A DNA stretch of 55,624 nt from assembly GCA_003663355.1 (NCBI GenBank), contig QMZV01000001.1, forward strand, positions 1 through 55,624, read 5' to 3'. Below the pieces are notes generated by a model. The model worked only from the letters and a program-made list of their open reading frames with translations. It made no database searches and was not told the origin of the DNA. The position numbers and the translations under genes were made by a program. The DNA is from Candidatus Aenigmatarchaeota archaeon (GTDB lineage: Archaea > Aenigmatarchaeota > Aenigmatarchaeia > QMZS01). The stretch's first letter is position 1. Each line of letters opens with the position of its first letter. Of this stretch, positions 2,634 to 29,799 are shown one piece after another.

Positions 2634-3423
2634 ACAATTATTCCTTGATAAATACTTTGGAAATAAGTTTGAAATGGAAGAAAAAATTGTGAGAATATTG
2701 AATTGGAATGTAAGGAACCCTTCTTACCAAAGAGCAACGAAACAATGTAGATATATAGAAAAATTAAAACCACACCTAATACTCCTTACGGAATTGAAAT
2801 CTTCCAGTGGTTTAAGATATTTCAAAGAAAGATTTTCGTATTTAGATTATGATTTATTTTACGAATTCCCTGAGGATGATTATTTTATTTTAATTGCATG
2901 TATTTTTGAAACTTGTGAAATACCGACTAGAACAGAGTTTTTACCACATAGGATGAAAGGAATTTACTTTAAGTATAGAGATATTAAAGGAAAATTTTTT
3001 GGTATCTACGTACCTTCTCGAGGTCCAAAAGAAAAGAGAAATGTAAATAAAAGAAAATTTCAGAACAGTGTAATGAAAACCTTGGATGAAATTAGAAATA
3101 AAGTTAAAGTTTCGAGACTTATTATTGGAGGAGATTTAAACGTTATTGACCCTTATCATATTCCAAAATATCCTATTTTTGGGAATTGGGAGTATGAATT
3201 TTATGAAAAATTCACTGAAATAGGACTAATTGACGCGTTTAGGAAAGTTAATTCTCATCAAGATTATAGTTGGTTTGGAAAAGAAGGAGATGGATATAGA
3301 TTCGATCATCTTTTTGTTTCAAAAGATTTAGAAAACAGAATTAAGAGTTGTTATTATGATCATACCGTAAGGGAAAAGAAGTTAAGTGATCATTCATCAA
3401 TGATTTTAGAACTGGAATTGTAG
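2626..3423 (+). CDS. endonuclease/exonuclease/phosphatase (EEP, ExoIII-like) family protein
   Basis: ILNWNVRN near the N-terminus, GGDLNV, and the C-terminal SDHSSMILEL His motif typical of the EEP fold. Confidence 0.7.
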   Translation: MSKQLFLDKYFGNKFEMEEKIVRILNWNVRNPSYQRATKQCRYIEKLKPHLILLTELKSSSGLRYFKERFSYLDYDLFYEFPEDDYFILIACIFETCEIPTRTEFLPHRMKGIYFKYRDIKGKFFGIYVPSRGPKEKRNVNKRKFQNSVMKTLDEIRNKVKVSRLIIGGDLNVIDPYHIPKYPIFGNWEYEFYEKFTEIGLIDAFRKVNSHQDYSWFGKEGDGYRFDHLFVSKDLENRIKSCYYDHTVREKKLSDHSSMILELEL

Positions 3424-5558
3424 ATTTTCCATCTCTGAATAGCTTTCTTAAGTCTTTCATCTTTTGTATCGTTAATCTCACGTTGTTGAAGGAGTTTGGA
3501 ACTTTTGTCAACAATTTCTACTTCCATGATTCGAAGAAATATCTCAAGACACTTTTTTAAACTTTCCTTCAACGAATTTTTTTCCATTAAGTTCCAAAAC
3601 TTTTCTAAGTAGCCATGGCACTTAATTATTTTAGGAATTTTAAACAACTTTTTATTTTTTGTTGCAATCAACACCATTGATTTAATAAAATCTAAACTAA
3701 GTTTTCTATGAGTTTTCATGAGTTCAAACAATTTGCGTTCTTCATTATTTCTTGCTGTTTTACGTAAACCTTTTATTGCATACATTAGCTCAAAATTTCT
3801 GTCTATCCATTCTTGAGAAAATTTTGCGAGCAAACCTATCTTTGGATTTAAATACCTCACTTTTATTTTCCCTATTCTCATGTCTGGTTTACCTATTATT
3901 AATTTCTTTTTGTATTTCTTTTCCGCTATTTTGAGCAACTTTATATAATTACACCCAATGAGAACCTCCAACTGGGCAAGCATATATGAGACTCTTGTAC
4001 AAAGAGGGTCTCCGAGTTTATTCTTTTCTACTAACTTTTTATCATGAATAAGATTAAATAAATCATTAAAAGTACACTTCTTTAGATTAATTATTTTCAT
4101 CAGAGCATCATCCCTTTCTAGAAATAGTATATTTTCGATTAATTCTTGCATACTCATAAGCGGATCGAACATAATAAAACCTAATCTGAAACCAACTCCG
4201 ATACAACTAAGTAACCTAATTGCCATCACCGATTGCTCTGGTGTTATACCTTTCCCATATCTCATCAACTGAGTTTTGGAACCAGACTCTACTCCCACAA
4301 AAACTCTTGCAAGACCAGCTTCTTTAAGAAGATGCCACATTTTTATCCTATTAACATGCCACTTTTTTGGCATTTTAAGATTATAAATTTGATCAATTCT
4401 GGTGTAAACATCAAAAGAAATCTTAATTTTATTTCTAATAATTCCTTTTGCAATTTTTATTAATCTTTTTGTTTCACTTTCATCGACACCACCAATTGTC
4501 TCTTCGTCTGCAATATAAAGATGTCTAGATAACTTAGAAAACTTGTTCATAATACTATTGAAATACTTAAGCTGCGAAATTATTACCCTTGGAGACATAC
4601 CCTTAAAGCATTTTGGTTTATGATGTCTTGGGCAAAAAGTGCATTGCCAAAAGCATCCTCTATTCCATTCATGAGTTAACGCACCTCTCAATTCAGCGAG
4701 TTTTTCTACAGTATCAGAAGCTGGTGGAGGTAAATCATCCATATTTATTGGTTTTACTGGTGTAACCAAAATTTTATTTTTGTATTTAGCAATTATACCA
4801 GAAATTTCTTCTAATTTCTTTTTGCCTTTTACAAATTCTATCAAATCAACCATTGTATTTTCTCCCTCTCCTCGCGCAATGAGTATATTTGGATATCTTT
4901 TAAGAAAATATTCTGGAAAAGAAGCCGCGATAAAATTACCAATTATAACTAGACCATCCCATTTTTTCTCTCTTTTAAGTCTGTAAATTCTGTCCAAAAT
5001 CTTTATAACAAGAGGGGTTTGTCCATGAGGACACGAAACTCCTATAATATCTGGGCGTATTTGTATTATTTTCTTTTCTATATCTACGGCTTTTAATCCT
5101 AATTGTGTATCAAGTATCAACACCTGCGCCTTTTGATATTTTCTTAAATAAGAGGCTAAGATTGACACACCCAAAGATAGCCGAGGTATGGGATATTTCT
5201 CTATTATGTAAGGATTTATTAATATAACTTTCGGCAAAGATAAAAATTCTTCAAATTTTTTTATTGTAGAAAATACAACAAACTTTTTGTGAAGCATCTT
5301 AACGGGAAGGATTTTTCTTAATACCGGGTTTTCTTCAAATTTTTGAAAAGGCGTATAAATTCTCACTTTATTATCGTAAAAGAAGTAAATAGCTAAATTT
5401 CTTGTCTCTCCTGTAACTACAATCTTATCCATTTTTACTCCATAAGCTTTTAAAACTTCTCTTATTTTTTCTTCTAATTCTGCTGGATTTCTATAATACA
5501 GTGAAGACAATATTTCTTTAATTTCACCAAGCATTTTTCTATTTTCTACACATCTCAT
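3390..5558 (-). CDS. B12-binding-domain radical SAM protein with a long C-terminal extension
   Basis: CFWQCTFC (CxxxCxxC) cluster motif preceded by a Rossmann-like cobalamin-binding-type region (VLILDTQLG...DIIGVSC). The last ~250 aa carry no motif I recognise. Alternative start M9 at 5534. Confidence 0.8.
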   Translation of the reverse strand: MRCVENRKMLGEIKEILSSLYYRNPAELEEKIREVLKAYGVKMDKIVVTGETRNLAIYFFYDNKVRIYTPFQKFEENPVLRKILPVKMLHKKFVVFSTIKKFEEFLSLPKVILINPYIIEKYPIPRLSLGVSILASYLRKYQKAQVLILDTQLGLKAVDIEKKIIQIRPDIIGVSCPHGQTPLVIKILDRIYRLKREKKWDGLVIIGNFIAASFPEYFLKRYPNILIARGEGENTMVDLIEFVKGKKKLEEISGIIAKYKNKILVTPVKPINMDDLPPPASDTVEKLAELRGALTHEWNRGCFWQCTFCPRHHKPKCFKGMSPRVIISQLKYFNSIMNKFSKLSRHLYIADEETIGGVDESETKRLIKIAKGIIRNKIKISFDVYTRIDQIYNLKMPKKWHVNRIKMWHLLKEAGLARVFVGVESGSKTQLMRYGKGITPEQSVMAIRLLSCIGVGFRLGFIMFDPLMSMQELIENILFLERDDALMKIINLKKCTFNDLFNLIHDKKLVEKNKLGDPLCTRVSYMLAQLEVLIGCNYIKLLKIAEKKYKKKLIIGKPDMRIGKIKVRYLNPKIGLLAKFSQEWIDRNFELMYAIKGLRKTARNNEERKLFELMKTHRKLSLDFIKSMVLIATKNKKLFKIPKIIKCHGYLEKFWNLMEKNSLKESLKKCLEIFLRIMEVEIVDKSSKLLQQREINDTKDERLKKAIQRWKIYNSSSKIIDE

Positions 5559-10913: not shown

Positions 10914-11377
10914 ATGTCGTTAAATACAAATCACCAACAGGAAAAATATTGGTATCAAGAGTTTTTTAGGAGATTTTATAAGTTATGAAGCTTTAGATGC
11001 CATGTTTGTTGCGTTTGGGCTGGAAGATATGATAATTACAAAAATGAAATTACTGTTTTTTTAATAAACCCGATTATCTAGCTACAATTGCAGAGGAATT
11101 ACTCCACCTGCACTTTTAGGAAATTACGAGAAAGTTGAAGATAAGAATAGAGGAAGAGAACTTGAAGGATTTCAAAAACAATTTTTACTGGCAGCTTTCC
11201 GAGTGCATACCTTGTTTAGTATTTTCCCATTCCGAGTTGAAATTGAAATTTGGCAAATATCCAGATTGGAAAGAAGTTAGAAAGGTTTTCAAAAAAATAA
11301 GACCTCTTTGGGATAACAAAAGAAATTTTACAGATTTTTTAAAAAATGCTTTCAATTTTATATCTCCTCAGAAATAA
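10914..11377 (+). pseudogene. decayed paralogue of the 3..572 gene (frameshift plus in-frame TAG)
   Basis: Reading across frames gives CVWAGRYDNYKNEITVF (compare CAWAGRYFYPKNEIEIF), AEELLHLHF* (compare AEELFHLYFW, TGG->TAG) and RPLWDNKRNFTDFL (compare KPFWKNRKNFTDFL). Only the last 80 codons remain an ORF. Confidence 0.7.
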
Positions 11378-12192
11378 ACAATATCAAAATGTCCAGGACA
11401 CAAGATTTTTGGATTCAATTTCTTTAATCTTTTCAAAGTTCTTTCACTTTCAATTTTAGACCCACTAGGATAAGTCCATCTGCCTTGGTAATTCTTCCCG
11501 AACCATGCATCTCCTGTGAAAAGAATTTTAGCTTTTTCTTCAAAGAGAGAAATCGAGCCATCTGTATGGCCTGGAGTTTCGAGAACTTTAAAATTGAATT
11601 TGCCAGTGGTTATTACATCGCCTTCCTTTACCACCTTATCAACTTTCGTTGAAATCAACTTTTTCGGACTTTTCTCGAGCAAAACTTTTTCGTTTAATTT
11701 TTCAATAGCTTCCATTTCTTTTCTACTGCAAACAATTTCGCATTTATTGATTTTCTTTAGTTCATTCAGGAAAAGAATGTGATCAAAGTGACAATGGGTA
11801 ATAACAATTAAATCTACAGGTTTCCTAACGAGGACACCAGCATCTATGAGCACTTTTTTCTCATCATCTATGTAATAGGTAAAACATCCTATCTCTGATT
11901 TAAACAACCATATTTTTTCTGTCACTTTTTCTGGAATAATCTCTATTAAATTTTTAATCTCAAGTTTTTTTATAAATTCCTCTACATCCATCTTTATCTT
12001 ATCTGGTCCTATATCTTTAAATTTAGAGATAAGAGCTCGTTGAATGTCTTCTTTTTGATTCTTCCCATTTAGTAGTTTTATTATTTCATAACCAACTTTA
12101 TTTGTTTCATGAAGTAATTCAGTTTCTGTATCAAATAATATAAACAGATTTTGCTGCCTTCTTATTTTTACAGATTGCTTAAGTATCATCAT
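11368..12192 (-). CDS. PqqD-like (RRE-type) N-terminal domain fused to an MBL-fold metallo-hydrolase
   Basis: Residues ~5-85 (LFILFDTETELLHETNKVGYEIIKLLNGKNQKEDI...MDVEEFIKKLEIKNLI) fit the PqqD pattern. The C-terminal half has ITHCHFDH (HxHxDH), TPGHTDGS, FTGD and CPGH. Confidence 0.7.
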   Translation of the reverse strand: MMILKQSVKIRRQQNLFILFDTETELLHETNKVGYEIIKLLNGKNQKEDIQRALISKFKDIGPDKIKMDVEEFIKKLEIKNLIEIIPEKVTEKIWLFKSEIGCFTYYIDDEKKVLIDAGVLVRKPVDLIVITHCHFDHILFLNELKKINKCEIVCSRKEMEAIEKLNEKVLLEKSPKKLISTKVDKVVKEGDVITTGKFNFKVLETPGHTDGSISLFEEKAKILFTGDAWFGKNYQGRWTYPSGSKIESERTLKRLKKLNPKILCPGHFDIVYF

Positions 12193-13812: not shown

Positions 13813-13976
13813 AATTAATTGTTGAACAATAAAATAGAATATTTCTTGTTTAAATGACACTTCTAAGGCCAGTTAAATAAATATTTGAAAGATTCGTAAA
13901 ATACAGCCAATATCTTCTCCTAATAGAAGTATTGGATTTCCTAAGATTTTTAAGAGAGAAAAGTATAAAACAAAAA

Positions 13977-14060
13977 ATGGAAACTGCACTTTTAAGTGAA
14001 AAATCATTAGGGAGAGATTGGTTATTGCCAGAAGAAAATGAAGCATGGAGAGATTTGTGA
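13977..14060 (+). CDS. 27-aa MazE-like antitoxin candidate
   Basis: METALLSEKSLGRDWLLPEENEAWRDL. The xSLxxDWxxPEExxAW tail is typical of small antitoxins preceding PemK/MazF genes. The stop overlaps the GTG of the downstream toxin frame (GTGA). Confidence 0.4.
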   Translation: METALLSEKSLGRDWLLPEENEAWRDL

Positions 14061-14369
14061 AAAGAGATGTCGTAGTAGTTCCCTTTCCTTTCTCAGATTT
14101 AACGCAAGCTAAAAGAAGACCTGCTTGCGAATTTAGAAGGAGACGACTTAATTCTTTGTCAAATTACAAGCAAATTAATTAGAGATAAATATGCAATTCC
14201 GCTAGAAGATTATGATTTTGTAGAAGGATCTCTAAAACAAAGTAGCAATATTGGACCTCACAGAATTTTTACTGCAGATTATCATATTATACTTTACAAA
14301 GTAGACACTCTCAAAGTTGAAAAAATTAATGAAGTTACAGAAAAGATAATAAGTATTTTAAAAGAGTAA
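14057..14369 (+). pseudogene. MazF/PemK-family toxin gene broken by a 1-nt frameshift
   Basis: Frame 1 reads VKRDVVVVPFPFSDLTQAKRRPA and then hits a stop. The next frame reads LEGDDLILCQITSKLIRDKYAIPLEDYDFVEGSLKQSSNIGPHRIFTADYHIILYKV...KE*. Together they form a complete PemK-like sequence, with the shift near 14124-14135. Confidence 0.6.
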
Positions 14370-14449
14370 AATCACTAACTAATAAGCAAACTCAAATACT
14401 CAGCACTAATTATTTTATTTGCTCAACCCAACTTCTTTCTCTATAAAAT

Positions 14450-14725
14450 CTAAAAATCACACCAGAAAGCAAGCAACTTCATCAAATTTAACATTGCAAA
14501 TTTCTTCCTCATCGAAATTAACATACCCGAATTTTTTTCCTTTAGAGCGTGTAAAGAGAAAAAGGATTTTCCAGCTCTCCTAACACCTTTAACAACTACT
14601 ATCTCTCCGGTTTTCATTAAAGATTTCAATTTCTTTAAATATTCTTTCCTTTCTATACTTTCATCTTTATAATTTCCCCAAAAATTCCAATCTATCAATA
14701 TTCTCAATATTTCATCTTTTTTCAT
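14450..14725 (-). pseudogene. N-terminal fragment of an archaeal AAA ATPase (COG1373/DUF4143-type), frameshifted and truncated
   Basis: MKKDEILRILIDWNFW...GEIVVVKGVRRAGKS (Walker A). The conserved YVNFDEEEI continuation appears in another frame. Fewer than 100 of the ~400 codons I would expect for this family are present. Confidence 0.55.
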
Positions 14726-14777
14726 AATATATCGGTAGGTTTTAATAATAAATATTAAAATATATCGGTAGGTTTTA
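14726..14777. repeat. 19-nt direct repeat (aatatatcggtaggtttta) x2 with a 33-nt period
   Basis: Copies at 14726-14744 and 14759-14777, immediately 5' of the ATPase fragment's ATG. Confidence 0.85.
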
Positions 14778-14900
14778 TTCAATACCAATAAAATAGTTAT
14801 TTCAAATCTTTGTATAAAAATTTTATAAAACTAAATCTTCTTTGAATTTTTTATCCAATATATAAGTGCTAACAAAGTTAAATGAAAAATATTTTCTATT

Positions 14901-15383
14901 ATGGAAATATATAAGAAATTAAAAGGTCAGGCTCTTTCTTTTGATTTTCTAATATCTGCTGCAATCTTCATTTTAATTCTTGCAATACTTTTAACTCAAG
15001 TTGGAAACAGTGCAAAAGAGTTGAATGAAATTAGAGAAAAAAATGAAATGATTCAGGAGGCATATAAATTAAGTGAAATTTTCTTTAATAAAGGTTATCC
15101 TGAAAACTGGAATAGCACAAATGTAAAAATTATTGGTTTGCAAAAAGATAATAGAATTGACTGGAATAAACTCAAAAGTTTGGAAAAAATCGGTTACCAG
15201 AAATCTTTAATTTTGCTTGGTTTGAAAAATGATTACAATTTTACAATTTTTAATGATACAACCCCAATTTATAGTTTTGGAAAAAATACAGAAAAAACTT
15301 CATCAATTATGAAAGTTGACAGAATTTCAATTTTAAATGGTTCAATTGTTTCAATTCAGATTCTAGTGTTCAATTATGATTAA
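14901..15383 (+). CDS. class III signal peptide (archaeal type IV pilin-like) protein
   Basis: MEIYKKLKGQALSFDFLISAAIFILILAILL has a basic N-terminus, a KG/Q prepilin-peptidase-type site, the GQxSxDFL pattern and a hydrophobic helix. Confidence 0.55.
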   Translation: MEIYKKLKGQALSFDFLISAAIFILILAILLTQVGNSAKELNEIREKNEMIQEAYKLSEIFFNKGYPENWNSTNVKIIGLQKDNRIDWNKLKSLEKIGYQKSLILLGLKNDYNFTIFNDTTPIYSFGKNTEKTSSIMKVDRISILNGSIVSIQILVFNYD

Positions 15384-18102
15384 GGGTCTTGTTTTTTCTT
15401 TGGATATTATTATTGGAATTTCTCTGTTATTAATTGTTTTAATTTCAAGTTTTTATCTTTTTTCTGTTCCTGAAGTTTACGAAGAGAGGGGATATGAACA
15501 ACAAAAACTTATTGCAAATGATTTTTTAAATTCTCTTGCGGAATTAAAAGTTTCTGAGGCCGCAACTCAAAGCAAAACAATAGAAAATTTAATTTTGAAC
15601 GGAAACATAACAGAAGATGAGCAAGAATTATCCGTCCTGAATTTAATTTTAACTTTTTTTGCTCGCTACAAAGATGAAAATAATACAGTAGAAAAAGAAA
15701 TAGCGGAAAATATAACAAAAGAAATGGCAAACTCAGTCAAAATTCTAAAAAATATAAATTTTAGTTTATCTGTTGGAAATGATTTTATTGTTGGAAATTA
15801 CACAAATACTTCTGATAAAATTGTTGTCTCAAGTTTAATTGAGAACACTTATGGTTCAGAAGAACCGAAATATGGTTATATGGCGAGAAGTTACTTAAGC
15901 GGAATTGAAACAGAAAGAGCAAGTTATTTATATTTCGGAGGTTTTGTCGGGCAGGGAAACTTAAGTTTCAATTTATATATTCCAGAAAATGCTGAGAATA
16001 TAACTTCAGCTTATTTAGAAGTTTCTTCTGGTTCCAACTTCTCTTTGTTTGTTAACAATAATTTTTCCGGGAATTTCTTTTTAAACTCATCAGATGGAAA
16101 CTTTAGTGCAAACATCAAATCTTCTGTTAATATATCAAATTTTAGAAAGGGAAACAATAATATAGAGATTGTTTTTAATACCTTAAATTTGAGTAAGATG
16201 TATCTTGGAGGAGGATTTTTAAGGGTAAATTATAACACAACTGAACTTTTTGAAGAAAAAGAATCAGGAATAGAGAGATATAATTTTCCAGGGATAGAGG
16301 GAATTATAAATCTTTATGACGGGTTTTATATTCCTGGAAATTTAACCAACATAAATATATATTTGCATTATTACAACAATATCTCTGGAGGAAGTATTTT
16401 TTTAACAATTGCAAATGCTACTGTCTTTGAAAGCAATGAAGTCGGAGAAGTGAATATTTCTTTGAACAATTCAAATATTAGTTCTTCTATAGCAAATAGC
16501 GGATTAAGTTATTACAATATATCAAAATTAACAATTCCTATAAGGCTAGGGATGAAATCAATCACATTTACAGAACAGGAAGTTGGAAATGCAGATGTTG
16601 TTTTAATAACTGATTTGAGCGGAAGTATGGCTCAATGTGTTGAAAACAATAGTGATTGCCCTTCCGGAAGTCAAAGAATAGATTTGGCAAAACAATTAGA
16701 TAAAGAATTTGTTGATATAATTTTAAATACCTCTGGCAATAGAGTTGCTTTAGTTTCTTTTAATTCTGAAATTTCAAATTATACTTCTCTAACTAATGAC
16801 ACAGCTTATTTAAATTCTACTATTGATAGTTATACAGCAGATGGTGGAACCTGTATTTGCTGCGCAGAAAATAAAGCCTATGAAATTCTGCAAACAGAAA
16901 GCAATTCTTCAAGACAGAAATTTGTGATTATGATGACGGATGGGATTCCTTCACATAAATGTTCATGTTATGGTTGTGGTTGTGAAGGAACAGGAACTTC
17001 TGGGTTTGGTCCTTGGGATGGAGGAAATTGTTATGGTTGTACTTATTGCTGCAATGCAAACCCAGATACTGGAGCAAATTGCGATTGCCCTACTGACCAA
17101 AGTTGTGGGCGTTGCGGTTGTTATTCCTGGTCTGGTTGGTGGTGTCATTCACAACCAACTTGTTGTGAGAATATTTGTGATTGTACTTGTGAATCTTGTT
17201 GTCAACAAAGTTGTTCTTGTTCTTGTGAAATCCAGAATGCAAATTTTTCAAGTTGCAGATTACACAATGATTTAAATGCAACAGTACATTCAATAGGTTT
17301 TGGACCAATAGCAAACTGCCAGATGGGAAACACAACATTAAGTGCAATAGCAGACTGCGGAAATGGAGAATATTATGCGAGCCAGAATGCTTCCGAATTG
17401 CAAGAAATTTATAGAAACATTGCTCAATCAATTGTTTCAATAAGTTATACAACTCAAAAAGTCAGTGTTGAAGGAAATGTTAGCATAGGAGGAAATCTTC
17501 TTTACAATGATTCTTACATAGAATTTAATTACAATGAAACAGGAACTGAGTTTGGTTATGGAGAATTTTCTCTAACTTTTGAGAAAAATTGCACAAATGG
17601 AACTTGCATTTTAGATAAGAAAAATGAAACAGAAATTTTAGATGCAAAGATTACTTCTTACTCCGCTGATTATTGGACAAATTTAGTTATCTTAACAAAC
17701 TCAACATCTGAAAATTTAACTATTTATAATCTATCAAAATATGGTGAATATGAGAAACTTGGAGACCCTTTCATGATTTCTATTCCAAGGGAAACAGTTT
17801 CTAATGGTACAAATGAAATTCAAATATTTTTAGGGATAAATGAAACAGATAGAATTTCTGGTTCAAATGATAGCAAATTAATCTATTCTTTGAAAGTCCC
17901 TGGTATTGTTGGTTATGGAAGTGTTTTTAATACAATAGAAGAAGCGGAAGAAGATGCAAGAAAAAGGTTGGAAGAAAAAATATACAATTTAACAGGGCAG
18001 GAGATTTCAATTTCAGGAATTAATACTGGAACTTCTACAATTACAGGAGTAAGAACAATTTCTAATACAAGTTTGGTAAAATTAGTTTATTGGAGGAAAT
18101 AA
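15376..18102 (+). CDS. pilin-like surface protein with a vWA domain carrying a 25-Cys insertion
   Basis: MIKGLVFSLDIIIGISLLLIVL is class III-like. MIDAS elements DLSGS (from 16612), ADGGT and MMTDG are present. A 101-aa insert with 25 Cys (16954-17256) precedes the last vWA strands (TVHSIGFG). NxS/T sequons are dense. Overlaps the upstream gene by 8 nt. Confidence 0.7.
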   Translation: MIKGLVFSLDIIIGISLLLIVLISSFYLFSVPEVYEERGYEQQKLIANDFLNSLAELKVSEAATQSKTIENLILNGNITEDEQELSVLNLILTFFARYKDENNTVEKEIAENITKEMANSVKILKNINFSLSVGNDFIVGNYTNTSDKIVVSSLIENTYGSEEPKYGYMARSYLSGIETERASYLYFGGFVGQGNLSFNLYIPENAENITSAYLEVSSGSNFSLFVNNNFSGNFFLNSSDGNFSANIKSSVNISNFRKGNNNIEIVFNTLNLSKMYLGGGFLRVNYNTTELFEEKESGIERYNFPGIEGIINLYDGFYIPGNLTNINIYLHYYNNISGGSIFLTIANATVFESNEVGEVNISLNNSNISSSIANSGLSYYNISKLTIPIRLGMKSITFTEQEVGNADVVLITDLSGSMAQCVENNSDCPSGSQRIDLAKQLDKEFVDIILNTSGNRVALVSFNSEISNYTSLTNDTAYLNSTIDSYTADGGTCICCAENKAYEILQTESNSSRQKFVIMMTDGIPSHKCSCYGCGCEGTGTSGFGPWDGGNCYGCTYCCNANPDTGANCDCPTDQSCGRCGCYSWSGWWCHSQPTCCENICDCTCESCCQQSCSCSCEIQNANFSSCRLHNDLNATVHSIGFGPIANCQMGNTTLSAIADCGNGEYYASQNASELQEIYRNIAQSIVSISYTTQKVSVEGNVSIGGNLLYNDSYIEFNYNETGTEFGYGEFSLTFEKNCTNGTCILDKKNETEILDAKITSYSADYWTNLVILTNSTSENLTIYNLSKYGEYEKLGDPFMISIPRETVSNGTNEIQIFLGINETDRISGSNDSKLIYSLKVPGIVGYGSVFNTIEEAEEDARKRLEEKIYNLTGQEISISGINTGTSTITGVRTISNTSLVKLVYWRK

Positions 18103-18251: not shown

Positions 18252-19418
18252 ATGGAATGCGCATTAGAATTAACAATAATTTTATCTAATGATATATATG
18301 AAAAAGTTTTCTTAGAGATTTTAAGTAAATTAAAAAAATCAGAATATTTTGTTTCTTCAACTTATTCTGCAAACAGATTGTACATAACATTTTCTGGAAA
18401 TAAAGAGTTATCAAAATTTGTTTTAGGAGTTATAGAGGGATTAAAGGGATTTCTGAGAGAATATAAATTAGGGATTAGAGATTTTTATGTTCCTTCTTAT
18501 GAAATAAGTTTTCCTTGCGAGTTTTTCGGAAAAGTTGAAATTCCAATTGCTAAAACAGTGATTTGTAATGGAAAAACATGCAGAATTGTTTTTGCAGATT
18601 TAGAGAAAGAATTTTTAAGGAATGGATTGGTAGAGAGGGCAATTAATTTAATAAAAAACATTTCAAAAAAAGAAGAAAAATTAATTTTCAAACAAGATTC
18701 TAATATCCGACCTGATCAAGAGAAGATTCAAGAAGAAATAAAACAAGAAATAAAAAAAGGGATTATAAAAGAAAAAAATATTTACTTGCCAACTTGCGCT
18801 GAAAAAATTTCTAAAATAAAGGAAGAAATTATAGAGAATTTGAAAAAGGAATTCAAAGCACAGGAAATTTTTGTTCCGCTATTTATACCAATAAATTTGC
18901 TTGAGAGCAGAGATATTTCTGAACTTATTCCAAAAGAAGCTTTTTCTAAGTTTGTGTCAAAACCTGTTAATTTAAAAAAACTTTATGAAATTTATTATCT
19001 GACTGAAAAAATTCCGAAAACAGAAATAAAAAATATTGGTTTGCTATATAATGAAATTCCACTTACATTATACAAAGCTCTTGAAAATACAACAGCAAAA
19101 AAACAATTCTTTTATTATCTAAATTATACCAAACTGAATTTCGCATTTTTTGATACAATAGAGAATTATGAAAACACAAAAGAGAAGATAATAGGATTTT
19201 TTAAAAACATTTTGAATATTTTTGGATTAGAAAGGATTGTGATGAAAAAAATTTGTGGAAAGGAATTTTTTAAATTTGAGGGTCTTAATAAAAAGCATTC
19301 TTCTCTTGTTGAAATATTTTTCTCAGAGGAAGCATATACAAAATTATTTAAAATAAAGGGAAAAAGCGGGCATGGAGTAATAAATCTTGAGAATTTGTTG
19401 TTGAACAAAATCTTCTAG
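18252..19418 (+). CDS. hypothetical protein
   Basis: Long ORF with ordinary coding-like composition. No motif I can assign. Confidence 0.4.
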   Translation: MECALELTIILSNDIYEKVFLEILSKLKKSEYFVSSTYSANRLYITFSGNKELSKFVLGVIEGLKGFLREYKLGIRDFYVPSYEISFPCEFFGKVEIPIAKTVICNGKTCRIVFADLEKEFLRNGLVERAINLIKNISKKEEKLIFKQDSNIRPDQEKIQEEIKQEIKKGIIKEKNIYLPTCAEKISKIKEEIIENLKKEFKAQEIFVPLFIPINLLESRDISELIPKEAFSKFVSKPVNLKKLYEIYYLTEKIPKTEIKNIGLLYNEIPLTLYKALENTTAKKQFFYYLNYTKLNFAFFDTIENYENTKEKIIGFFKNILNIFGLERIVMKKICGKEFFKFEGLNKKHSSLVEIFFSEEAYTKLFKIKGKSGHGVINLENLLLNKIF

Positions 19419-23468: not shown

Positions 23469-24425
23469 TCACTCTTCCTGAAATCCAAAAACAGAAAACA
23501 AAATCATAGAAAAAACTCCGGAAATCGGAGAAAACAGAAGTCCCCTGAGAAACTCAAGAAAAACCCATATTGTAAAACTCATTATTATTGGAAACCAGAC
23601 CAAAAAAGCATTTAATAATATAGAATTTTCAATTCCTTTAGAAATAACAGAACTTAAATTTAGATTTACTTCATTAACTTTTAAAGAACCCATTTTCTTT
23701 TCTATATCTTTTCTTATCCCTGTTTCTATCTGCAAATATTGCTCCTCTGTTAAATTCGGATATTGCTCTCTTATTGCTTTCATTTGGTTTTCTACAACTT
23801 GACTTATGATTTCATTTGTTGAATTGCCAATTTGAGTGTTAAAATTTGAAATTTCAGAACTAACAATATCTGTTATGCTTGAAATTGTTGTGTTTAGAAA
23901 AACTTGCCTGTAAGAGTCATTTATAGAGAATGAAATAAATGAACCCAAAAATATAAATAGGAACAAGACAAACAAAGATTTGCTAACAGCATTGCTTCCA
24001 ACTCTAAATTTCTTCCATTTTTTTAATTCTTTTTTATAAGTTTCTCCAAGTGGAATTACATACAAACATGAAACAAAAAGGCCAAAACCAAAAAATAAAA
24101 ATAAAATTGAAAAATTGAATAAAATTCCTGACAGAAAAATAGGAATTATTAAGAAATACCTTAGATTTCCAATTTTTCTTACTGATAAAAAAGACAAGGC
24201 AAAACAAAAGATTATAAATGATAAGATTGCAGTTAAAATTTCAGAAAAAGTTGAAATGAAAACTTCAAAGGCAGAATGTTCCTGCACTCCTAAAGTAAAT
24301 ATTTTTATAAAGCTTGCTTGCAATAAAGTTATTGAATTTAAATTTACATTGCTTATGTAGAGAACAAGAAAACCAAGAGAAAATAAGACTGAGATAAAGA
24401 TAAATTCTAATATTTCTGTTTTCAT
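23469..24425 (-). CDS. multi-pass membrane protein, unknown function
   Basis: Several long hydrophobic segments on both sides of a ~100-aa polar loop. ATG 24425 avoids overlap with the upstream gene. Confidence 0.5.
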   Translation of the reverse strand: MKTEILEFIFISVLFSLGFLVLYISNVNLNSITLLQASFIKIFTLGVQEHSAFEVFISTFSEILTAILSFIIFCFALSFLSVRKIGNLRYFLIIPIFLSGILFNFSILFLFFGFGLFVSCLYVIPLGETYKKELKKWKKFRVGSNAVSKSLFVLFLFIFLGSFISFSINDSYRQVFLNTTISSITDIVSSEISNFNTQIGNSTNEIISQVVENQMKAIREQYPNLTEEQYLQIETGIRKDIEKKMGSLKVNEVNLNLSSVISKGIENSILLNAFLVWFPIIMSFTIWVFLEFLRGLLFSPISGVFSMILFSVFGFQEE

Positions 24426-24432
24426 ATTTTTT

Positions 24433-27400
24433 TCACCATTCTTGCTTTTTTCTTTTTTCATCATAATATCTTCTCCATTCCGCCAATTTCTTTTCTCTAA
24501 GTATCTCTTCTTCGCTTTTTCTTCTTTTGAATTTTTTAAATATGTTTTTTATTTTCTCTCCAAAGTTACATTTATTGCTCTCAAATATATATCCCTTTCC
24601 AGGAAGATAACCTTTCTTTGGAATAAGGGTATAAAATAAAATAACTCCTAAAAGAATAAGAACGAAAACAATAACACCTATTATAAGGAATGGGAAACCT
24701 CCTTTTTCTTTTAAATTACCAATTTCACTAAAAATAGAGTTTAGATCTTCCTTTAAGGAATCTATTAACTTTTTTGCTTCTATATAATTTCCTTGCTCAA
24801 TATAATTTTTTATCTGGTTTAATGTCTGGTTTGCATTATTTATTTTTTGTTCAATAGATGAAATATTTTTTCCTTTCTTTTTTGCTTCTTCAAATTTTTT
24901 AAACAGATTATCAAATTGAAATGTCAAATTTTCATAACACTTGTTTATTTTGATTTTCTCTTCTTCGCAAGGAAGAATTGTCAAATTAAATTTTTCTGTG
25001 AAATTTCTTTCATCAGAGATTGCTTTTAAAATTAATTCTTTGACTCCTATTTCTTTTGTTTTTGGAATTGTGAAACTGATTGTATATGTTTTCTCGCTGT
25101 TTTTTGAGAGATTGATTTTTAATTCAGTAATTTTAAATAAGTTTTCATCAATTCCGCTTAAAATTAAATACAAATTATGCAAAGTTGCTTCTCCTACATT
25201 TTTAACTTTAAAACTCATGTTCTTCTCTTCTCCTTGCGTAATGTTAATATCTTGAAGATTAAGAAATTTCAAGGATACTTTTTTCACTTTAAGAGTGATT
25301 TTTTTGCTCTTATTGTACTCATCTGATATAAATTTAATAGTTAAATTGTAATCTTTTGGTTCAAAGTCTTCTGGAATTGAAAAATGTATTTCAAAATCAA
25401 GTGTTTTCCCTGGACTTAAATCTCTCTTGTTATCTTTGTCATAGTCTATATTATAATAACCTTCGCTTATTCCAGACAAACTTAAATAAGAATTATGCAA
25501 TGTTGCATTTCCTGTATTTTTTACTCTAACTTTTAAATCTGCTGTTCCTCCTTGAAAAATTTCAATTTTAGAAACTTCAACATTGTTTATTTCAAGTTTC
25601 TCAAAGGAGATGCTATAATATATTGTTGGATTTTCATTTACATTTCCGTTATTTTGCGTTGAGGAACTTGTTATTGTTATTTCACCAATTTTTTTAAAAT
25701 CAGAATATTGACTTGTGGAATTTTCTACTCCGGACAATTTCACATAGATATTTTTATCTCCTGTTGAAGTACAAGAAAACCCTGAAGCATGATAGGATTT
25801 AATGGAGTTATTATTTATTTTTTCTGAAGTATCTGCTGTTTTATTTGTGCCACAAACTTTAATTTCAATTTTATTTATAAAAGCTGCCCAGTCCCCTGTG
25901 TTTTTGATCTTGATATACACATCAAATGAAGAATTTACAGATTTTGAAGAAGGTGTGTTATCTTCATCTAAAGAAACAACTAAATTGCCGTATTTGACAA
26001 CAATATTTTGTTGTATTGTTTTATTAAATCTTCCATCGGCTGAAGAAGCAGTTATGTTTATTGTATAAGTTCCCTTTTCTGTTCCATTTAAAGTCCAATT
26101 TAACAATTTTGAATTACTCTGGTTTATATTTCCAGCAGATTTTGTTAGATTATCTGTTGTACTAATTGCAGATGGCAATTGCAAAGTAACATTAACATTT
26201 TCTGCACTTAAATTTCCCAATTTTGAGATATTTATTTTAAATTCAAATGGATAACCTTTAACAATTGAATTCAAATCGCTTACAACACTCAAATTCAAAT
26301 CGTGCAACAATTCAAAAGTTAGATTTACTTCTGCAGTATTATTTGCATTATCCACTAAATTTCCCAAAATTGTATAATTACAACCTTCTTTAAAAATTGT
26401 TTTGTTTGTTGTGTTTAAATCTGCTGAAAACAATTTTGCAGAATTATCAAAAGTAAAATTTAAAGTTTGTGCAAGATTTCCTGTTGAGTTTAAAATTTCC
26501 AAAGTATAATTTTTTGATATATTCCATAAGTCATCTTTTGTCTGGTTGTCAAAGAAATAAACAGAGAAATTTAACTCTGTTAAATTGTCAGATTCAAAAT
26601 AATAAACTTTTTTGTTTAATCTTGGCAAAGTTTTGTTTGTTACATTGAAATTTAGAGTTAAGTTTAGGTATTTGAATGGTTGGCCGTTTGAGGAATTTAA
26701 ATAAATCCACCCAGAATAAGTTCCAGTAATATTTGGAGAAAAAACAGTTAGATTTATAGTTTTTGAATTGCCATTTGATATATTTACAGGCTCTGAAATA
26801 TTTGTTTCATTAATCCAACAAATAGAAAAATTTAATCCACTAAAACTGCTGTTAGAAACTGTTAAGTTTTCTAAATTTGAACTTCCAGTATTATTTACAA
26901 CGAATAATAAACTCTTTGTCTGATTCAAATTTATAAACAAATTTCTCGTTTTGTTGTAATTTTCAGTTTCCCCAGCTTCTAAAGATTGATTTCCAATATA
27001 ATAATTTTCCTTATAGTTTGGTCTGAGTTTTAGAATTGGTGCGGAGAGATTTATGTTTACAGGCAATTCAAAAGAATTCTTAGTGGCGGTAATTTTTATA
27101 ACAGTGTTATAATTTCCATCCACAACTTTATTTTCAGGAGAGGTTAAATTAAAGTAAACAACAGAACTGCTCTCGTTTGTCAAATTTCCCAATTTGGTAA
27201 TATTATTTCCGGATAAATGAATTGTTAAATTATAAGAGAAACTTGTTGTATCATTAGTGTTGTTTATTAAAACGGTCCAGTAGCCTTCAGAGATATCTGT
27301 TGTGAATGTCCAATTATTTCCCCCTTTTGTTGAATTTATCAAACCACCAGTTGAATTATAAAGAGATAGATTTATTTCATTTGTTGCATTAGAAACAAGA

Positions 27401-29799
27401 GAAACATTTATTGAAACAACAGAATTGTTATCAACATAAAAGGTCCAGTTTTTTGTTGTTCCATTTGAAATTGTCTTGTTTTCAAATTTGTGCTTAACAT
27501 CTGTAAAATTTGTTTTGAATCTATTATCCAAGAATTTAATTGTCAAATTGAAAGTTTCATTTCCAGAAACATTTTCACCGAAAACAGTTGCCCTCCAGAT
27601 TCCATATTTTACTTTTGTAATATTTAACTCTGTTATTAAAAAATTTCCACCACCAGAAGTATTTTCAAAATTCTCCCCAGTTCTCAGATTTGTCAGGTTC
27701 AAAGTTAAATTATTTGTTGAATTTGTCCAGGTCAGATTTGCTGTTAAATTTGAAGAAAAAGGAACAATAAATGTAAAATTTTTAGTTTGATTTGAAATAT
27801 TTTGATTTTGCCAATCATAAGTTAGATAATAATTTTCCACACTCAGAGTAACATTTTCTTCTGCTGCCGTTGTTTTGATGGTGAAATTTCTGTTTTTTGT
27901 TTGGGCAGGTTCTAAACTTAAATTTTCTTCCCGTTCCGCTTCAATGAAACTTTTTGTAATTATTAAAGTTCCAGATAGATTATTACTTTGCGTTGCAGAA
28001 ATATTTACAGAGCCGCTTGAAGTTTCGCCAAACCATATTGTTATATTCCAAATTCCTAGTTCGGGATTGCTTATTATGATGCTATTTTCTGTAGTATTGG
28101 TTTTGTTACTTTCTTTTGTTATGTTATCCTTTTCCACGGCAAGATAGCTGTCAGTTAAAACAGAAAAATTAGCTTTTACAATTAAATTGGAAATATTTCC
28201 TATTTCAACCAAGTAATTTTTTGTTTCGCAATCTGTTTGAATTTCTATTTTTTTCTTTAATATAAATGGGACATCTACTTCCATACCAACTGATATTATA
28301 GTTGAATTTGTATCTTCTGTTATATTTACATCAATTTTTCCAGTATAAATTCCAGAAGAATTTTCAGGTGCTGTCAGATTAATATTTATTGTTGTGCTGT
28401 TCGTATTATTTATTGTCAGAATTTCGTTCCCCGTTGCATTATAACTCAAATTTCCATCAACCCAGGCGAATATATTTGAGTTATTTATTGTTTGATTTTC
28501 ACTATTTGTCAGATTTGAAAAAGTTATTGTAATGTTTATATTTTTTGTTGAAATTATTGTTATATTTTTTGTTTCAGTGCTGTTTGACTCCAAAATAAAT
28601 TCCAATTTTTTCGGAATAACCGAAACATTAAATTCTGATAAATTTAGATAAGTAAGATAAGGATCTATTCTTGAATGATTTTCATTATTGCCAATACTTA
28701 TTCCCGTATTTATAAACAAATCCTCTAATTCCTGCGGTGTTTTTGATATTCCTTTTAATTCAAGATATTGCTTAATTAAGGCAAAAGCTCCTGCAACATG
28801 AGGGGTTGCCATTGAGGTTCCATCTAAATTTTTCCAACCATTTGGCCAAGTTGAATAAATTGATTCGCCAGGAGCAAAGAGAATTGGTAAATTCCAGTAA
28901 TTGCTAAAACTAGAAATTGAATCTTCACCATTCACAGAACCAACAGGAGTTGCATTCTGAATGCATGCGGGTAATGAAATAGCACTTGAATTATACTCAT
29001 TTCCGCTCGCAACAATAACAGAAATATTTTTTGCTGTTGCATTGTTTATTGCAGAAGTTAGTAGTGGCACTTCAGCATCGCAATAACTGTTATTATGATA
29101 ATCTGTTGTGCCAAGACTCATTGAAATCACTGAAATATTGTATTCTTCTGAGAAATCTGTGCAGTAATTTATTCCTGCAATAAGATCATCAAAATTGGCA
29201 TATCCTCGTTCTCCAAAAATATTCACAACAACCAATTTAGAATCAGGAGCAACTCCTTTGTAAGTAGTATTATTTGAAGCAATAATCCCAGCAACATGAG
29301 TTCCATGCCCTACTTTATCGTAGCAAGCAGAATGATTTGAGGAGCAATTATATTTTTCATCCATTGAACTATTTTCTACAAATCTCCATCCTCCGAGAAT
29401 TTTTCCACTACTCCAGTTTCCACCAAGAGCAGAATGATTGTAATCAATTCCTGTGTCAATAATGCAAATTGTTTGCCCTTTTCCAGTCAAATTTATTCCA
29501 TTTACAGAGATATTCCACAATTTATCCGCCTGAATTTGAGGAACAGATTCATCCAAGAAAGCATAAACTTTCAGATTTGGATAAATTTTGTATCCTTTTG
29601 CTTTTAATTCATCAATTTGAGTTTCGTTTAATTCCCCAGAACAGGAATTTGTTCCGTAAATTTGGTTACATTTTATGTTTTGTTGAGTCAGACTAGAAAT
29701 TCCTATCTCACCCGTTGGAGGTGTTATAATATAACTATCTGCAAAACATGGTGCAGTTAAAACAATCAATAAAACAAGCAATAACTCTATTTTCTTCAT
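24433..29799 (-). CDS. giant membrane-anchored surface protein: N-terminal subtilisin (S8) protease plus a long Asn-rich beta-repeat stalk with CARDB-like repeats
   Basis: Signal peptide MKKIELLLVLLIVLTAPCFA. Catalytic triad contexts IIDTGIDYNH, GHGTHVAGI and GTSMATPHVAG. About 1300 aa saturated with NxS/T sequons. Two tandem CARDB-like units are present (...DLKVRVKNTGNATLHNSYLSLSGI... and ...MSFKVKNVGEATLHNLYLILSGI...). Coiled coil, single TM (FPFLIIGVIVFVLILLGVILFY) and a basic tail. Confidence 0.85.
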   Translation of the reverse strand: MKKIELLLVLLIVLTAPCFADSYIITPPTGEIGISSLTQQNIKCNQIYGTNSCSGELNETQIDELKAKGYKIYPNLKVYAFLDESVPQIQADKLWNISVNGINLTGKGQTICIIDTGIDYNHSALGGNWSSGKILGGWRFVENSSMDEKYNCSSNHSACYDKVGHGTHVAGIIASNNTTYKGVAPDSKLVVVNIFGERGYANFDDLIAGINYCTDFSEEYNISVISMSLGTTDYHNNSYCDAEVPLLTSAINNATAKNISVIVASGNEYNSSAISLPACIQNATPVGSVNGEDSISSFSNYWNLPILFAPGESIYSTWPNGWKNLDGTSMATPHVAGAFALIKQYLELKGISKTPQELEDLFINTGISIGNNENHSRIDPYLTYLNLSEFNVSVIPKKLEFILESNSTETKNITIISTKNINITITFSNLTNSENQTINNSNIFAWVDGNLSYNATGNEILTINNTNSTTININLTAPENSSGIYTGKIDVNITEDTNSTIISVGMEVDVPFILKKKIEIQTDCETKNYLVEIGNISNLIVKANFSVLTDSYLAVEKDNITKESNKTNTTENSIIISNPELGIWNITIWFGETSSGSVNISATQSNNLSGTLIITKSFIEAEREENLSLEPAQTKNRNFTIKTTAAEENVTLSVENYYLTYDWQNQNISNQTKNFTFIVPFSSNLTANLTWTNSTNNLTLNLTNLRTGENFENTSGGGNFLITELNITKVKYGIWRATVFGENVSGNETFNLTIKFLDNRFKTNFTDVKHKFENKTISNGTTKNWTFYVDNNSVVSINVSLVSNATNEINLSLYNSTGGLINSTKGGNNWTFTTDISEGYWTVLINNTNDTTSFSYNLTIHLSGNNITKLGNLTNESSSVVYFNLTSPENKVVDGNYNTVIKITATKNSFELPVNINLSAPILKLRPNYKENYYIGNQSLEAGETENYNKTRNLFINLNQTKSLLFVVNNTGSSNLENLTVSNSSFSGLNFSICWINETNISEPVNISNGNSKTINLTVFSPNITGTYSGWIYLNSSNGQPFKYLNLTLNFNVTNKTLPRLNKKVYYFESDNLTELNFSVYFFDNQTKDDLWNISKNYTLEILNSTGNLAQTLNFTFDNSAKLFSADLNTTNKTIFKEGCNYTILGNLVDNANNTAEVNLTFELLHDLNLSVVSDLNSIVKGYPFEFKINISKLGNLSAENVNVTLQLPSAISTTDNLTKSAGNINQSNSKLLNWTLNGTEKGTYTINITASSADGRFNKTIQQNIVVKYGNLVVSLDEDNTPSSKSVNSSFDVYIKIKNTGDWAAFINKIEIKVCGTNKTADTSEKINNNSIKSYHASGFSCTSTGDKNIYVKLSGVENSTSQYSDFKKIGEITITSSSTQNNGNVNENPTIYYSISFEKLEINNVEVSKIEIFQGGTADLKVRVKNTGNATLHNSYLSLSGISEGYYNIDYDKDNKRDLSPGKTLDFEIHFSIPEDFEPKDYNLTIKFISDEYNKSKKITLKVKKVSLKFLNLQDINITQGEEKNMSFKVKNVGEATLHNLYLILSGIDENLFKITELKINLSKNSEKTYTISFTIPKTKEIGVKELILKAISDERNFTEKFNLTILPCEEEKIKINKCYENLTFQFDNLFKKFEEAKKKGKNISSIEQKINNANQTLNQIKNYIEQGNYIEAKKLIDSLKEDLNSIFSEIGNLKEKGGFPFLIIGVIVFVLILLGVILFYTLIPKKGYLPGKGYIFESNKCNFGEKIKNIFKKFKRRKSEEEILREKKLAEWRRYYDEKRKKQEW

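Follow-up and report, generated by a model that had tools for sequence, protein, structure and literature searches.

The gene pair and its cysteine-rich loop

The stretch of DNA analysed here, called the window below, is contig QMZV01000001.1 (55,624 nucleotides), whose source is a tiny, probably host-dependent DPANN archaeon similar to the Aenigmarchaeota. It carries on its forward strand two genes which overlap by 8 nucleotides. The open reading frame ORF1 (14901-15383) encodes a minor-pilin-like protein of 160 residues, which opens with MEIYKKLKGQALSFDFL. ORF2 (15376-18102) encodes a protein of 908 residues, which opens with MIKGLVFSLDIII and is described here as a pilin-anchored adhesin with a von Willebrand factor A (vWA) domain, on the basis of its vWA match, its N-terminal motif and its homologues. 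The coordinates, the sequences and the overlap agree with those of an earlier annotation made from the letters alone (the sequence-only reading). ORF2 has a loop crowded with cysteines which leaves the vWA domain directly after an aspartate of the MIDAS, its metal ion-dependent adhesion site. This loop is the extreme form of an insertion found throughout a family of DPANN proteins, and it differs strongly between strains of the same species.

The N-terminal part of ORF2 consists of a class III-like signal with a hydrophobic helix (residues 1-28, 15376-15459; conserved motif, helix 9-28 in the model), followed by a helical stalk (residues 33-120) and a beta-sandwich region (residues 127-363). 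The latter two span 15472-16464 and match no Pfam family; they are delimited by the secondary structure of the AlphaFold2 (AF2) model, whose confidence score (pLDDT) is 80-97 in this region. The first part of the vWA domain (residues 386-523, 16531-16944) is defined by conserved columns and by a match to Pfam VWA_2 (PF13519) on residues 408-523 (E = 6e-12, 46.5 bits for a cut-off of 27). The MIDAS is formed by D413-L-S415-G-S417 (16612-16626), T492 (16849-16851) and D522 (16939-16941). In an alignment of 76 homologues, each of these residues shows either no variation or a conservation of at least 90%. The site is complete as far as its residues are concerned and is predicted to bind a metal. 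The intact MIDAS described in the sequence-only reading is thus confirmed, both by the VWA_2 match and by the conservation of all MIDAS residues.

The cysteine-rich insertion, which forms a loop after the MIDAS aspartate, covers residues 524-612 (16945-17211), as judged from cysteine count, pLDDT and strain divergence. It is followed by the second part of the vWA domain (residues 613-690, 17212-17445), which includes a helix (..EIQNANFSSCRLHNDL, residues 616-633 in the model) and the strand VHSIGFG (635-642). The vWA fold resumes at about residues 640-686, with an NCBIfam vWA match on residues 650-686, and the cysteine pair C648/C661 of this part is conserved. The protein ends with beta-rich domains (residues 691-908, 17446-18099), seen in the AF2 model, which belong to no Pfam family; this C-terminal region is conserved among homologues, including the long paralogues with DUF2341 mentioned below.

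The AF2 model of ORF2 has a mean pLDDT of 81.9. The best matches obtained in the PDB by a Foldseek search with this model are vWA structures (probability 1.00); the top matches include the pilin PilB of Streptococcus sanguinis (7b7p, E = 4e-11), the type V pilus tip protein Mfa5, RrgA and GBS104. The sequence of ORF2 contains 46 N-x-S/T sequons, compared to 17.5 +/- 3.7 in shuffled sequences (a 2.6-fold excess), which would fit a glycosylated extracellular archaeal protein.

Residues 527-627 (16954-17256), directly after the MIDAS aspartate, hold 25 of the 34 cysteines of ORF2. Considering the cysteine background in the other ORFs of the window (1.27%), the binomial probability of finding at least 25 cysteines in 101 residues is 5e-25. 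The other stop-free stretches of 60 residues, in any frame of the window, contain at most 7 cysteines. The sequence-only reading had singled out this 101-residue segment right after the MTDG motif. Its position and its 25 cysteines are as described, but its extent has to be revised: the last 12-15 residues or so (..SCEIQNANFSSC) are the regular vWA helix that precedes strand beta5, i.e. helix 616-633 of the model. According to the model, the true insertion would therefore correspond to about residues 524-612. Compared to the shortest paralogues, in which only 31 residues separate the TDG motif from beta5, the insertion amounts to ~82 additional residues.

The GC content of the insert is 0.41, compared to 0.30 in the rest of the gene, whereas the GC content at the third codon position is equal in the two parts (0.18 and 0.19). 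The rise in GC is therefore due to the amino acid composition, that is to Cys and Gly codons, and not to foreign DNA, which supports the earlier remark that the local enrichment comes from TGY and GGN codons. A horizontal origin of the insert was rejected on the same grounds. Five contigs are on record that encode the identical 908-residue protein, and the four that were retrieved represent distinct samples (from ENA, from JGI and from two runs of Logan). The recurrence of the same protein in different samples of independent projects shows that the insert is not an assembly artefact.

The search with full-length ORF2 returned 406 homologues. Those with a named source are all from DPANN archaea, except for one partial match labelled Archaeoglobus. 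The closest are from Aenigmarchaeota (69-93% identity), and Micrarchaeota, Pacearchaeota, Nanoarchaeota and Parvarchaeota are also represented. These homologues are annotated solely as 'VWA domain-containing' or 'hypothetical', and no published description of this DPANN vWA family, of its cysteine-rich loop or of the behaviour of the loop as an allelic cassette was found in the searchable literature.

From 95 family members we took the stretch that runs from the TDG strand to beta5. An insertion after TDG is the rule in this DPANN family: its common form has ~66 residues and 7 cysteines, with the pattern IPTH.C....GC.GT..G....EGLWLG.GAGCYGG.DDC...DC.CA..NANWSSCR, and the 7-Cys core loop is kept across DPANN phyla. 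Tryptophan is 2.4-fold enriched in these loops across the family. The 31-residue segment of the shortest paralogues has two cysteines; the first comes soon after TDG, the second belongs to the helix that follows, and together they resemble a staple closing the loop at its neck. In the clade to which ORF2 belongs, the loop is expanded to 70-119 residues and 11-25 cysteines, ORF2 being the maximum. The insertion, which the sequence-only reading did not recognize from other vWA domains, is not unique: the family norm is a loop with 7 cysteines in the same position, and ORF2 is the extreme of an expansion that took place in its clade.

Other family members carry other modules in the same domain. 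In Micrarchaeota, a BNR propeller (PF14870) follows TDG, and one homologue (P0045) has an insert of 205 residues without identified family. The members of 1160-1515 residues have a block of ~600 residues between helix alpha3 and the TDG strand, which contains DUF2341 in many of them. Since the cysteine loop, the BNR propeller, the DUF2341 block and the 205-residue insert all share one domain, the top-face loops of this vWA domain are a hotspot for grafted modules.

No curated cysteine-rich family fits the insert, in line with the sequence-only reading. Indeed, the insert alone has no match in Pfam at E < 4.8 and none among PDB sequences at E < 5, and a word-index homology search gave no candidates. 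An exhaustive HMMER search with the insert against 1.84 billion cluster representatives returned three matches; two are at the same site in proteins of ~890 residues, one of these two being the family member P0011.

Cysteine parity and strain-level alleles

The total number of cysteines is even in 70 of 82 full-length family members (range 14-33), a set which does not include ORF2 and its 34 cysteines; the binomial p-value is 4e-11, but such values are overstated because the sequences are related and not independent. In the segment between TDG and beta5, on the contrary, odd numbers of cysteines prevail: 68 of 95 members have one, as do 16 of the 17 with at least 11 cysteines there (11, 13, 17, 19, 23 or 25). 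That the count remains odd in 16 of these 17 expanded members indicates that cysteines are gained and lost in twos, not in fours. Pairing demands parity, which metal-thiolate clusters and Cys4 sites do not, and the parity therefore favours disulfides over metal clusters.

The comparison of the window with two contigs of the same species (L008 and L009) reveals how fast the insert changes. The flanking genes are 96-99% identical, and the vWA proteins are 97-99% identical outside the insert, whereas the insert alleles are ~30% divergent in DNA. The residues of the insert that agree with those of ORF2 are 53 out of 75 aligned ones in L008 (with 22 gap positions) and 32 out of 61 in L009 (33 gap positions). 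Relative to these conspecific strains, the synonymous divergence (dS) is 0.68-0.78 in the insert, compared to 0.05-0.11 in the flanks, and the nonsynonymous divergence (dN) is 0.26-0.47, compared to 0.003-0.03. The insert is the fastest-changing part of ORF2, and its strain-variable core is sharply bounded, from about 16963 to about 17220. The inserts of two distant homologues (P0003 and P0006) are as similar to that of ORF2 as the conspecific ones.

A census of all contigs with the conserved right boundary gives exactly three alleles, each of which is identical across independent assemblies. Allele A, with 25 cysteines in the insert, is present in the window and in four retrieved contigs (L001-L004); allele B, with 19 cysteines, is present in two contigs (Ga0190316 and Ga0190315) and allele C, with 13 cysteines, in two contigs. 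A scan of genome contigs with the boundary motif gave no match, and a scan of metagenomes gave three more contigs and no fourth allele. In the vWA protein of L009 (P0002), a second mosaic patch is seen at about residues 462-491, in the beta3-alpha3 region, where the sequence resembles that of distant members rather than that of the window; this patch suggests that recombination extends beyond the cysteine loop.

The high synonymous divergence indicates that the alleles are old lineages moved by recombination, rather than products of hypermutation in situ. Their most likely origin is recombination combined with in-frame indels which add or remove cysteines in pairs.

Another explanation is that the expansion of the loop results from neutral, low-complexity growth, by slippage or unequal recombination of TGY-rich repeats, in which case the differences between alleles would have no meaning for binding. 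The insert indeed contains short imperfect direct repeats (a 35-nucleotide family at 17159-17229 and the hexanucleotide TTGTTC repeated 2.7 times), the alleles differ mostly by indels, and the dN/dS ratio of the insert is below 1. However, the parity of the cysteines survives every indel, the synonymous divergence, about ten times that of the flanks, is not produced by slippage alone, the alleles are discrete and stable across samples, and different DPANN phyla have kept a structured core with 7 cysteines. Neutral growth is therefore rather unlikely; in particular, the conserved parity and the high dS make it unlikely that slippage is the whole story.

The spacing of the cysteines in the insert (8 CxC, 3 CC and 5 CxxC) cannot decide between disulfides and metal binding. 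The insert might form a metallothionein-like thiolate cluster (with Zn, Cu, Cd or Fe-S), which would serve to capture metals, to attach to minerals or to make redox contact. The proportion of cysteines in the segment (25%) and their spacing are consistent with such a cluster; a habitat without oxygen, which is probable here, would work against disulfides, and the failure of AF2 to fold the segment is expected if the fold forms only with metal. On the other hand, no metallothionein, no other cysteine-rich Pfam family and no PDB sequence was matched, the cysteine counts shift strictly by two and not by four, with an even total in 85% of the members, and the number and spacing of the cysteines vary freely among alleles. 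Moreover, the insert has 10 aromatic residues (4 Trp, 4 Tyr and 2 Phe), and aromatic residues are unusual in metallothioneins. Metallothioneins and knottins resemble the insert in their cysteine density and in their CxC, CC and CxxC spacing, but neither matches it in sequence, and the insert (~90 residues and ~22 cysteines) is far larger than a knottin. Metal binding by the insert thus appears improbable, while the parity makes it likely that the insert is disulfide-bonded. The sequence-only reading had left the choice between a disulfide-laced and a metal-loaded surface: the parity and the 10 aromatic residues favour the former, and the metallothionein-like option is disfavoured.

The protein CglB of Myxococcus xanthus offers, by analogy, an experimental precedent for a disulfide-stapled vWA adhesin. 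Like ORF2, it is built from a beta-jellyroll and a MIDAS-bearing vWA domain, and it is rich in cysteines: it has 16, in predicted disulfides which staple loops at the neck, and the protein shifts its gel mobility upon treatment with dithiothreitol (PMC9946355). Unlike ORF2, CglB is no pilin but a lipoprotein of the outer membrane, where it is part of a gliding machine; its cysteines (4%) are spread along the protein, compared to 25% in one loop of ORF2, and allelic cassette variation has not been described for it.

Pilin-like N-termini and pilus genes in relatives

Both ORF1 and ORF2 have the features of a class III signal, that is a basic leader ending with Gly or Ala and a hydrophobic helix of ~20 residues. 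The N-terminus of ORF1 is ..KKLKG/QALSFDFLISAAIFILILAILL and that of ORF2 is MIKG/LVFSLDIIIGISLLLIVLISSFYLF, in each case a short basic leader followed by the hydrophobic helix. The motif [KR]G-x-x-F-[ST]-x-D and the hydrophobic stretch that follows it are kept across the 120 listed homologues of ORF2, and the listed homologues which start at Met all open with a few basic residues, K/R-G, the motif and the hydrophobic helix. Cleavage of the signal probably occurs in both proteins.

ORF1 has no Pfam match above threshold. It matches ComGE models below the cut-off (E = 0.045 in Pfam; E = 9.5e-6 in NCBIfam, with 25.6 bits for a cut-off of 49). Its AF2 model (mean pLDDT 74) shows an N-terminal helix of 49 residues (14-62) followed by four beta strands (111-158), and this modelled shape is pilin-like, but without significant structural match to solved pilins.

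The pilin assignment gains most from the genomic context in relatives. In three contigs (L005, L006 and L007), the gene orthologous to ORF2 is the fourth of a co-directional cluster, after three small genes whose products open with MKAQ.SxEF, MK[AG]Q..IEF and K[AG]Q.FS.DF. The products of the first two have 120-140 residues and open with MKAQ.S.EFL or MK[AG]Q..IEF, the classical class III signal of archaea. The sister pilins of relatives match the Pfam profile Class_IIIsignal weakly (E = 0.0017 for one small protein of the cluster, and 0.11). Orthology links ORF1 to the third of these small pilin genes, with 62% identity in L007 and 32-38% in L006 and L005. In the same three contigs, the pilin cluster and the adjacent genes of a T2SSE ATPase and two T2SSF platform proteins are transcribed divergently. 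Two short contigs (L010 and L011) have the same four-gene cluster, the ATPase side being off the contig. The combination of one ATPase gene and two platform genes has been reported as the layout of 'system 1' of the archaeal type IV filaments (TFF) and of some 4A systems, in DPANN (bioRxiv 10.64898/2026.04.22.720090). The fourth position of the cluster is also held by the DUF2341-type proteins of 1160-1515 residues.

The canonical loci of relatives contain, downstream of the vWA gene, a further pilin-like gene whose product has 320-410 residues and opens with MKG/VLFS (17236-18465 in L007, 6750-7979 in L011, 4789-5751 in L010 and 4386-5600 in L012). Just upstream of it, three of these four loci encode a protein of 258-274 residues with a Sec signal. 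Neither of these two genes is in the window.

The window contains only the last two genes of the cluster of relatives, those of the third pilin and the vWA protein, which stand apart from the canonical cluster. Likewise, only this pair is present in the conspecific contigs L008 and L009, beside AAA_14/DUF4143 genes. At the place that corresponds to 13861-14900 of the window, L008 and L009 have two intact AAA_14/DUF4143 genes (430 and 410-414 residues); in the window, this neighbour has shrunk to a remnant of 112 residues (14450-14788, reverse strand). In L009, the vWA gene is separated from the gene that follows by an extra 5.3 kb, which encodes a NosD/PKD protein and a Y1 transposase. The gene pair is thus set in a variable island.

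PilB from S. sanguinis (7B7P), a type IV minor pilin of modular build whose vWA module has a MIDAS flanked by arms, is one of the known proteins closest in organization to the one proposed for ORF2, and its likeness to RrgA has been noted (PMC8179133). As in ORF2, a class III-type N-terminus and a pilin anchor are followed by a vWA domain with a MIDAS, which is functional in PilB. The arms protrude beside the MIDAS, and PilB is a proposed tip adhesin. Unlike ORF2, PilB is bacterial, has about half the size, and has neither a beta-sandwich before the vWA domain nor beta-rich domains after it; its arms are not cysteine-rich, hypervariability between strains has not been reported, and no sequence homology with ORF2 is detectable beyond the vWA fold. 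RrgA and GBS104 are also pilus-tip vWA adhesins with two arms inserted beside the MIDAS, but they belong to an unrelated type of pili, the sortase-assembled ones of Gram-positive bacteria, contain isopeptide-bonded Ig-like domains, and have arms that are not rich in cysteines. Other large vWA proteins whose genes accompany those of minor pilins at type IV filament loci are PilY1/PilC and TadG, of bacterial type IVa and Tad pili, and the archaeal 'PilY-like' adhesin; PilY1 differs from ORF2 in having a C-terminal propeller and no pilin N-terminus. The vWA proteins of archaeal type IV pilus loci have been noted mainly as regulators or 'PilY-like' adhesins (PMC4858521; bioRxiv 10.64898/2026.04.22.720090). 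The sequence-only reading did not recognize this kind of insertion, but arms at the MIDAS (PilB, RrgA) and disulfide loops (CglB) both have precedents (PMC8179133, PMC9946355).

It is conceivable that ORF1 and ORF2 are not pilus subunits, and that they are held at the cell surface by an uncleaved signal anchor, as vWA proteins of the BatA/BatB type. ORF2 has weak NCBIfam matches to BatA and BatB, the window is devoid of pilus genes, and the pair sits amid housekeeping genes. However, the orthologues in five relatives are the fourth gene after small proteins of the K[AG]Q/KG type, and in three of these relatives the cluster adjoins T2SSE and T2SSF genes. The K-G and hydrophobic helix motif is kept in the whole family, and a modular type IV pilin ranks among the closest matches in structure. 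We consider membrane-anchored surface proteins of this type quite improbable. The assignment of ORF1 and ORF2 as pilins is well supported by orthology and synteny, and processing and assembly into a pilus would be expected from it. The class III, pilin-like character put forward in the sequence-only reading therefore stands, the motif being now backed by synteny.

Proposed role and other genes of the window

Taking these results together, we hold with moderate confidence that a minor-pilin/adhesin module ends with ORF1 and ORF2 as its last two genes, and that ORF2 is a pilus adhesin with a disulfide loop on its MIDAS face. The two proteins would belong to a DPANN type IV pilus which has a single ATPase and whose platform is divided between two genes. 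Both would be produced with class III signal peptides, cleaved after K-G, and would be inserted into the pilus by their hydrophobic N-terminal helix. ORF2 is most likely at the tip, because it is too bulky for the shaft, and the small ORF1 pilin could be its neighbour or adaptor. The MIDAS of ORF2 would bind a divalent cation and contact the ligand. Right after the MIDAS aspartate, the chain would leave the vWA fold for ~90 residues, forming a loop rich in Cys, Gly and Trp which would be cross-linked by about a dozen disulfides, one cysteine being bonded outside the counted segment. Since the insertion directly follows the MIDAS aspartate, the loop must emerge on the ligand-binding face, and its position in the sequence suggests that it would shape what the adhesin binds.

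The differences between alleles could tune the recognition of the ligand, which may be a component of the host-cell surface. Another possibility is that the variation is a means of escaping something for which the pilus tip acts as a receptor. The allele pattern fits selection for different partners as well as escape from a user of the tip receptor. Going further, the loop could be a determinant of partner specificity in DPANN episymbionts, with ancient alleles recombined and kept by balancing or diversifying selection, and the vWA domain could be a general scaffold for host recognition; this extension is speculative and we regard it as rather doubtful. A diversity-generating retroelement, or another form of targeted hypermutation, as the driver of the variability is extremely unlikely: such elements are common in DPANN archaea and the hypervariable region is sharply bounded, but this origin was ruled out because the 55.6-kb window has no second (template) copy of the region, and because the changes include many indels and affect all four bases; in addition, no reverse transcriptase was found among the scanned ORFs of the window, and each allele is identical in independent samples.

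Several observations weigh against the pilus adhesin with a disulfide loop. The insert is not folded by AF2 (pLDDT < 50 for residues 546-612), and neither the geometry of the insert relative to the MIDAS nor the disulfide connectivity was read from the model. The CxC, CC and CxxC spacing is also typical of metal-thiolate proteins, and the strength of the parity argument is reduced by the relatedness of the sequences. The closest named relative (an 'ex4484' genome) is presumably from hydrothermal sediment, and a reducing habitat would make disulfides outside the cell less certain. The dN/dS ratio of the insert is 0.4-0.6, below 1, so that positive selection is not demonstrated. Regarding the pilus itself, neither ORF1 nor ORF2 matches the Class_IIIsignal profile (PF04021), and a Foldseek search with the ORF1 model gave no PDB match at E < 0.02, the matches being to ribosomal protein S3 at chance level only. 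The pair is detached from the canonical cluster, and a Pfam scan of the window, which covered the ORFs of at least 100 residues not nested in a longer ORF, detected no pilus ATPase, no platform protein and no prepilin peptidase (peptidase A24). The sequence-only reading had proposed to look for a prepilin peptidase and a pilus ATPase elsewhere in the genome; in relatives, ATPase and platform genes are present beside the orthologues in L005, L006 and L007. The absence of a peptidase from the window carries little weight, since the DPANN archaeon Mia14 has a single FlaK-like peptidase, which is unlinked to its pilus loci (PMC5498576).

Little is known about how DPANN archaea find their hosts and attach to them: a role of type IV pili is suspected, yet an adhesin still has to be defined. 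The ORF2 family provides a concrete candidate, which occurs in several phyla, has pilus genes alongside, and combines a MIDAS face with a strain-variable cysteine loop. Modular pilins with a vWA domain were already known in bacteria, and ORF2 would be a modular type IV pilin of this known sort; what appears to be new is a DPANN family with a cysteine-rich, allelic loop. The fact that one vWA domain accepts a cysteine knot, a propeller or a LamG-like block also bears on the diversification of adhesins.

The window contains a few other genes of interest. On the forward strand, 18252-19418 encodes a protein of 388 residues with a tRNA_bind_4 domain; it gives a weak match to archaeal-type seryl-tRNA ligase, but is far shorter than the model, which has 518 positions. 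On the reverse strand, 33306-34829 encodes a protein of 507 residues with a class II tRNA-synthetase core and a SepRS C-terminal domain, similar to O-phosphoseryl-tRNA synthetase; judging from its domains, this gene would imply that the archaeon uses the indirect pathway for Cys-tRNA formation. A protein of 1788 residues, encoded at 24433-29799 (reverse strand), is a predicted surface protein with subtilase S8 and NPCBM-associated domains; an adjacent ORF of 330 residues (23469-24464), which matches no Pfam family, looks on visual inspection like a hydrophobic multi-pass protein. Directly after the gene of ribosomal protein S11, 44240-45520 (reverse strand) encodes a TnpB/Cas12f-like protein (OrfB_IS605 and Cas12f1-like TNB domain). 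Finally, a fusion of PqqD with a metallo-beta-lactamase (11368-12192) and a B12-binding radical SAM protein (3390-5558), both encoded on the reverse strand, may be products of peptide-maturation genes.

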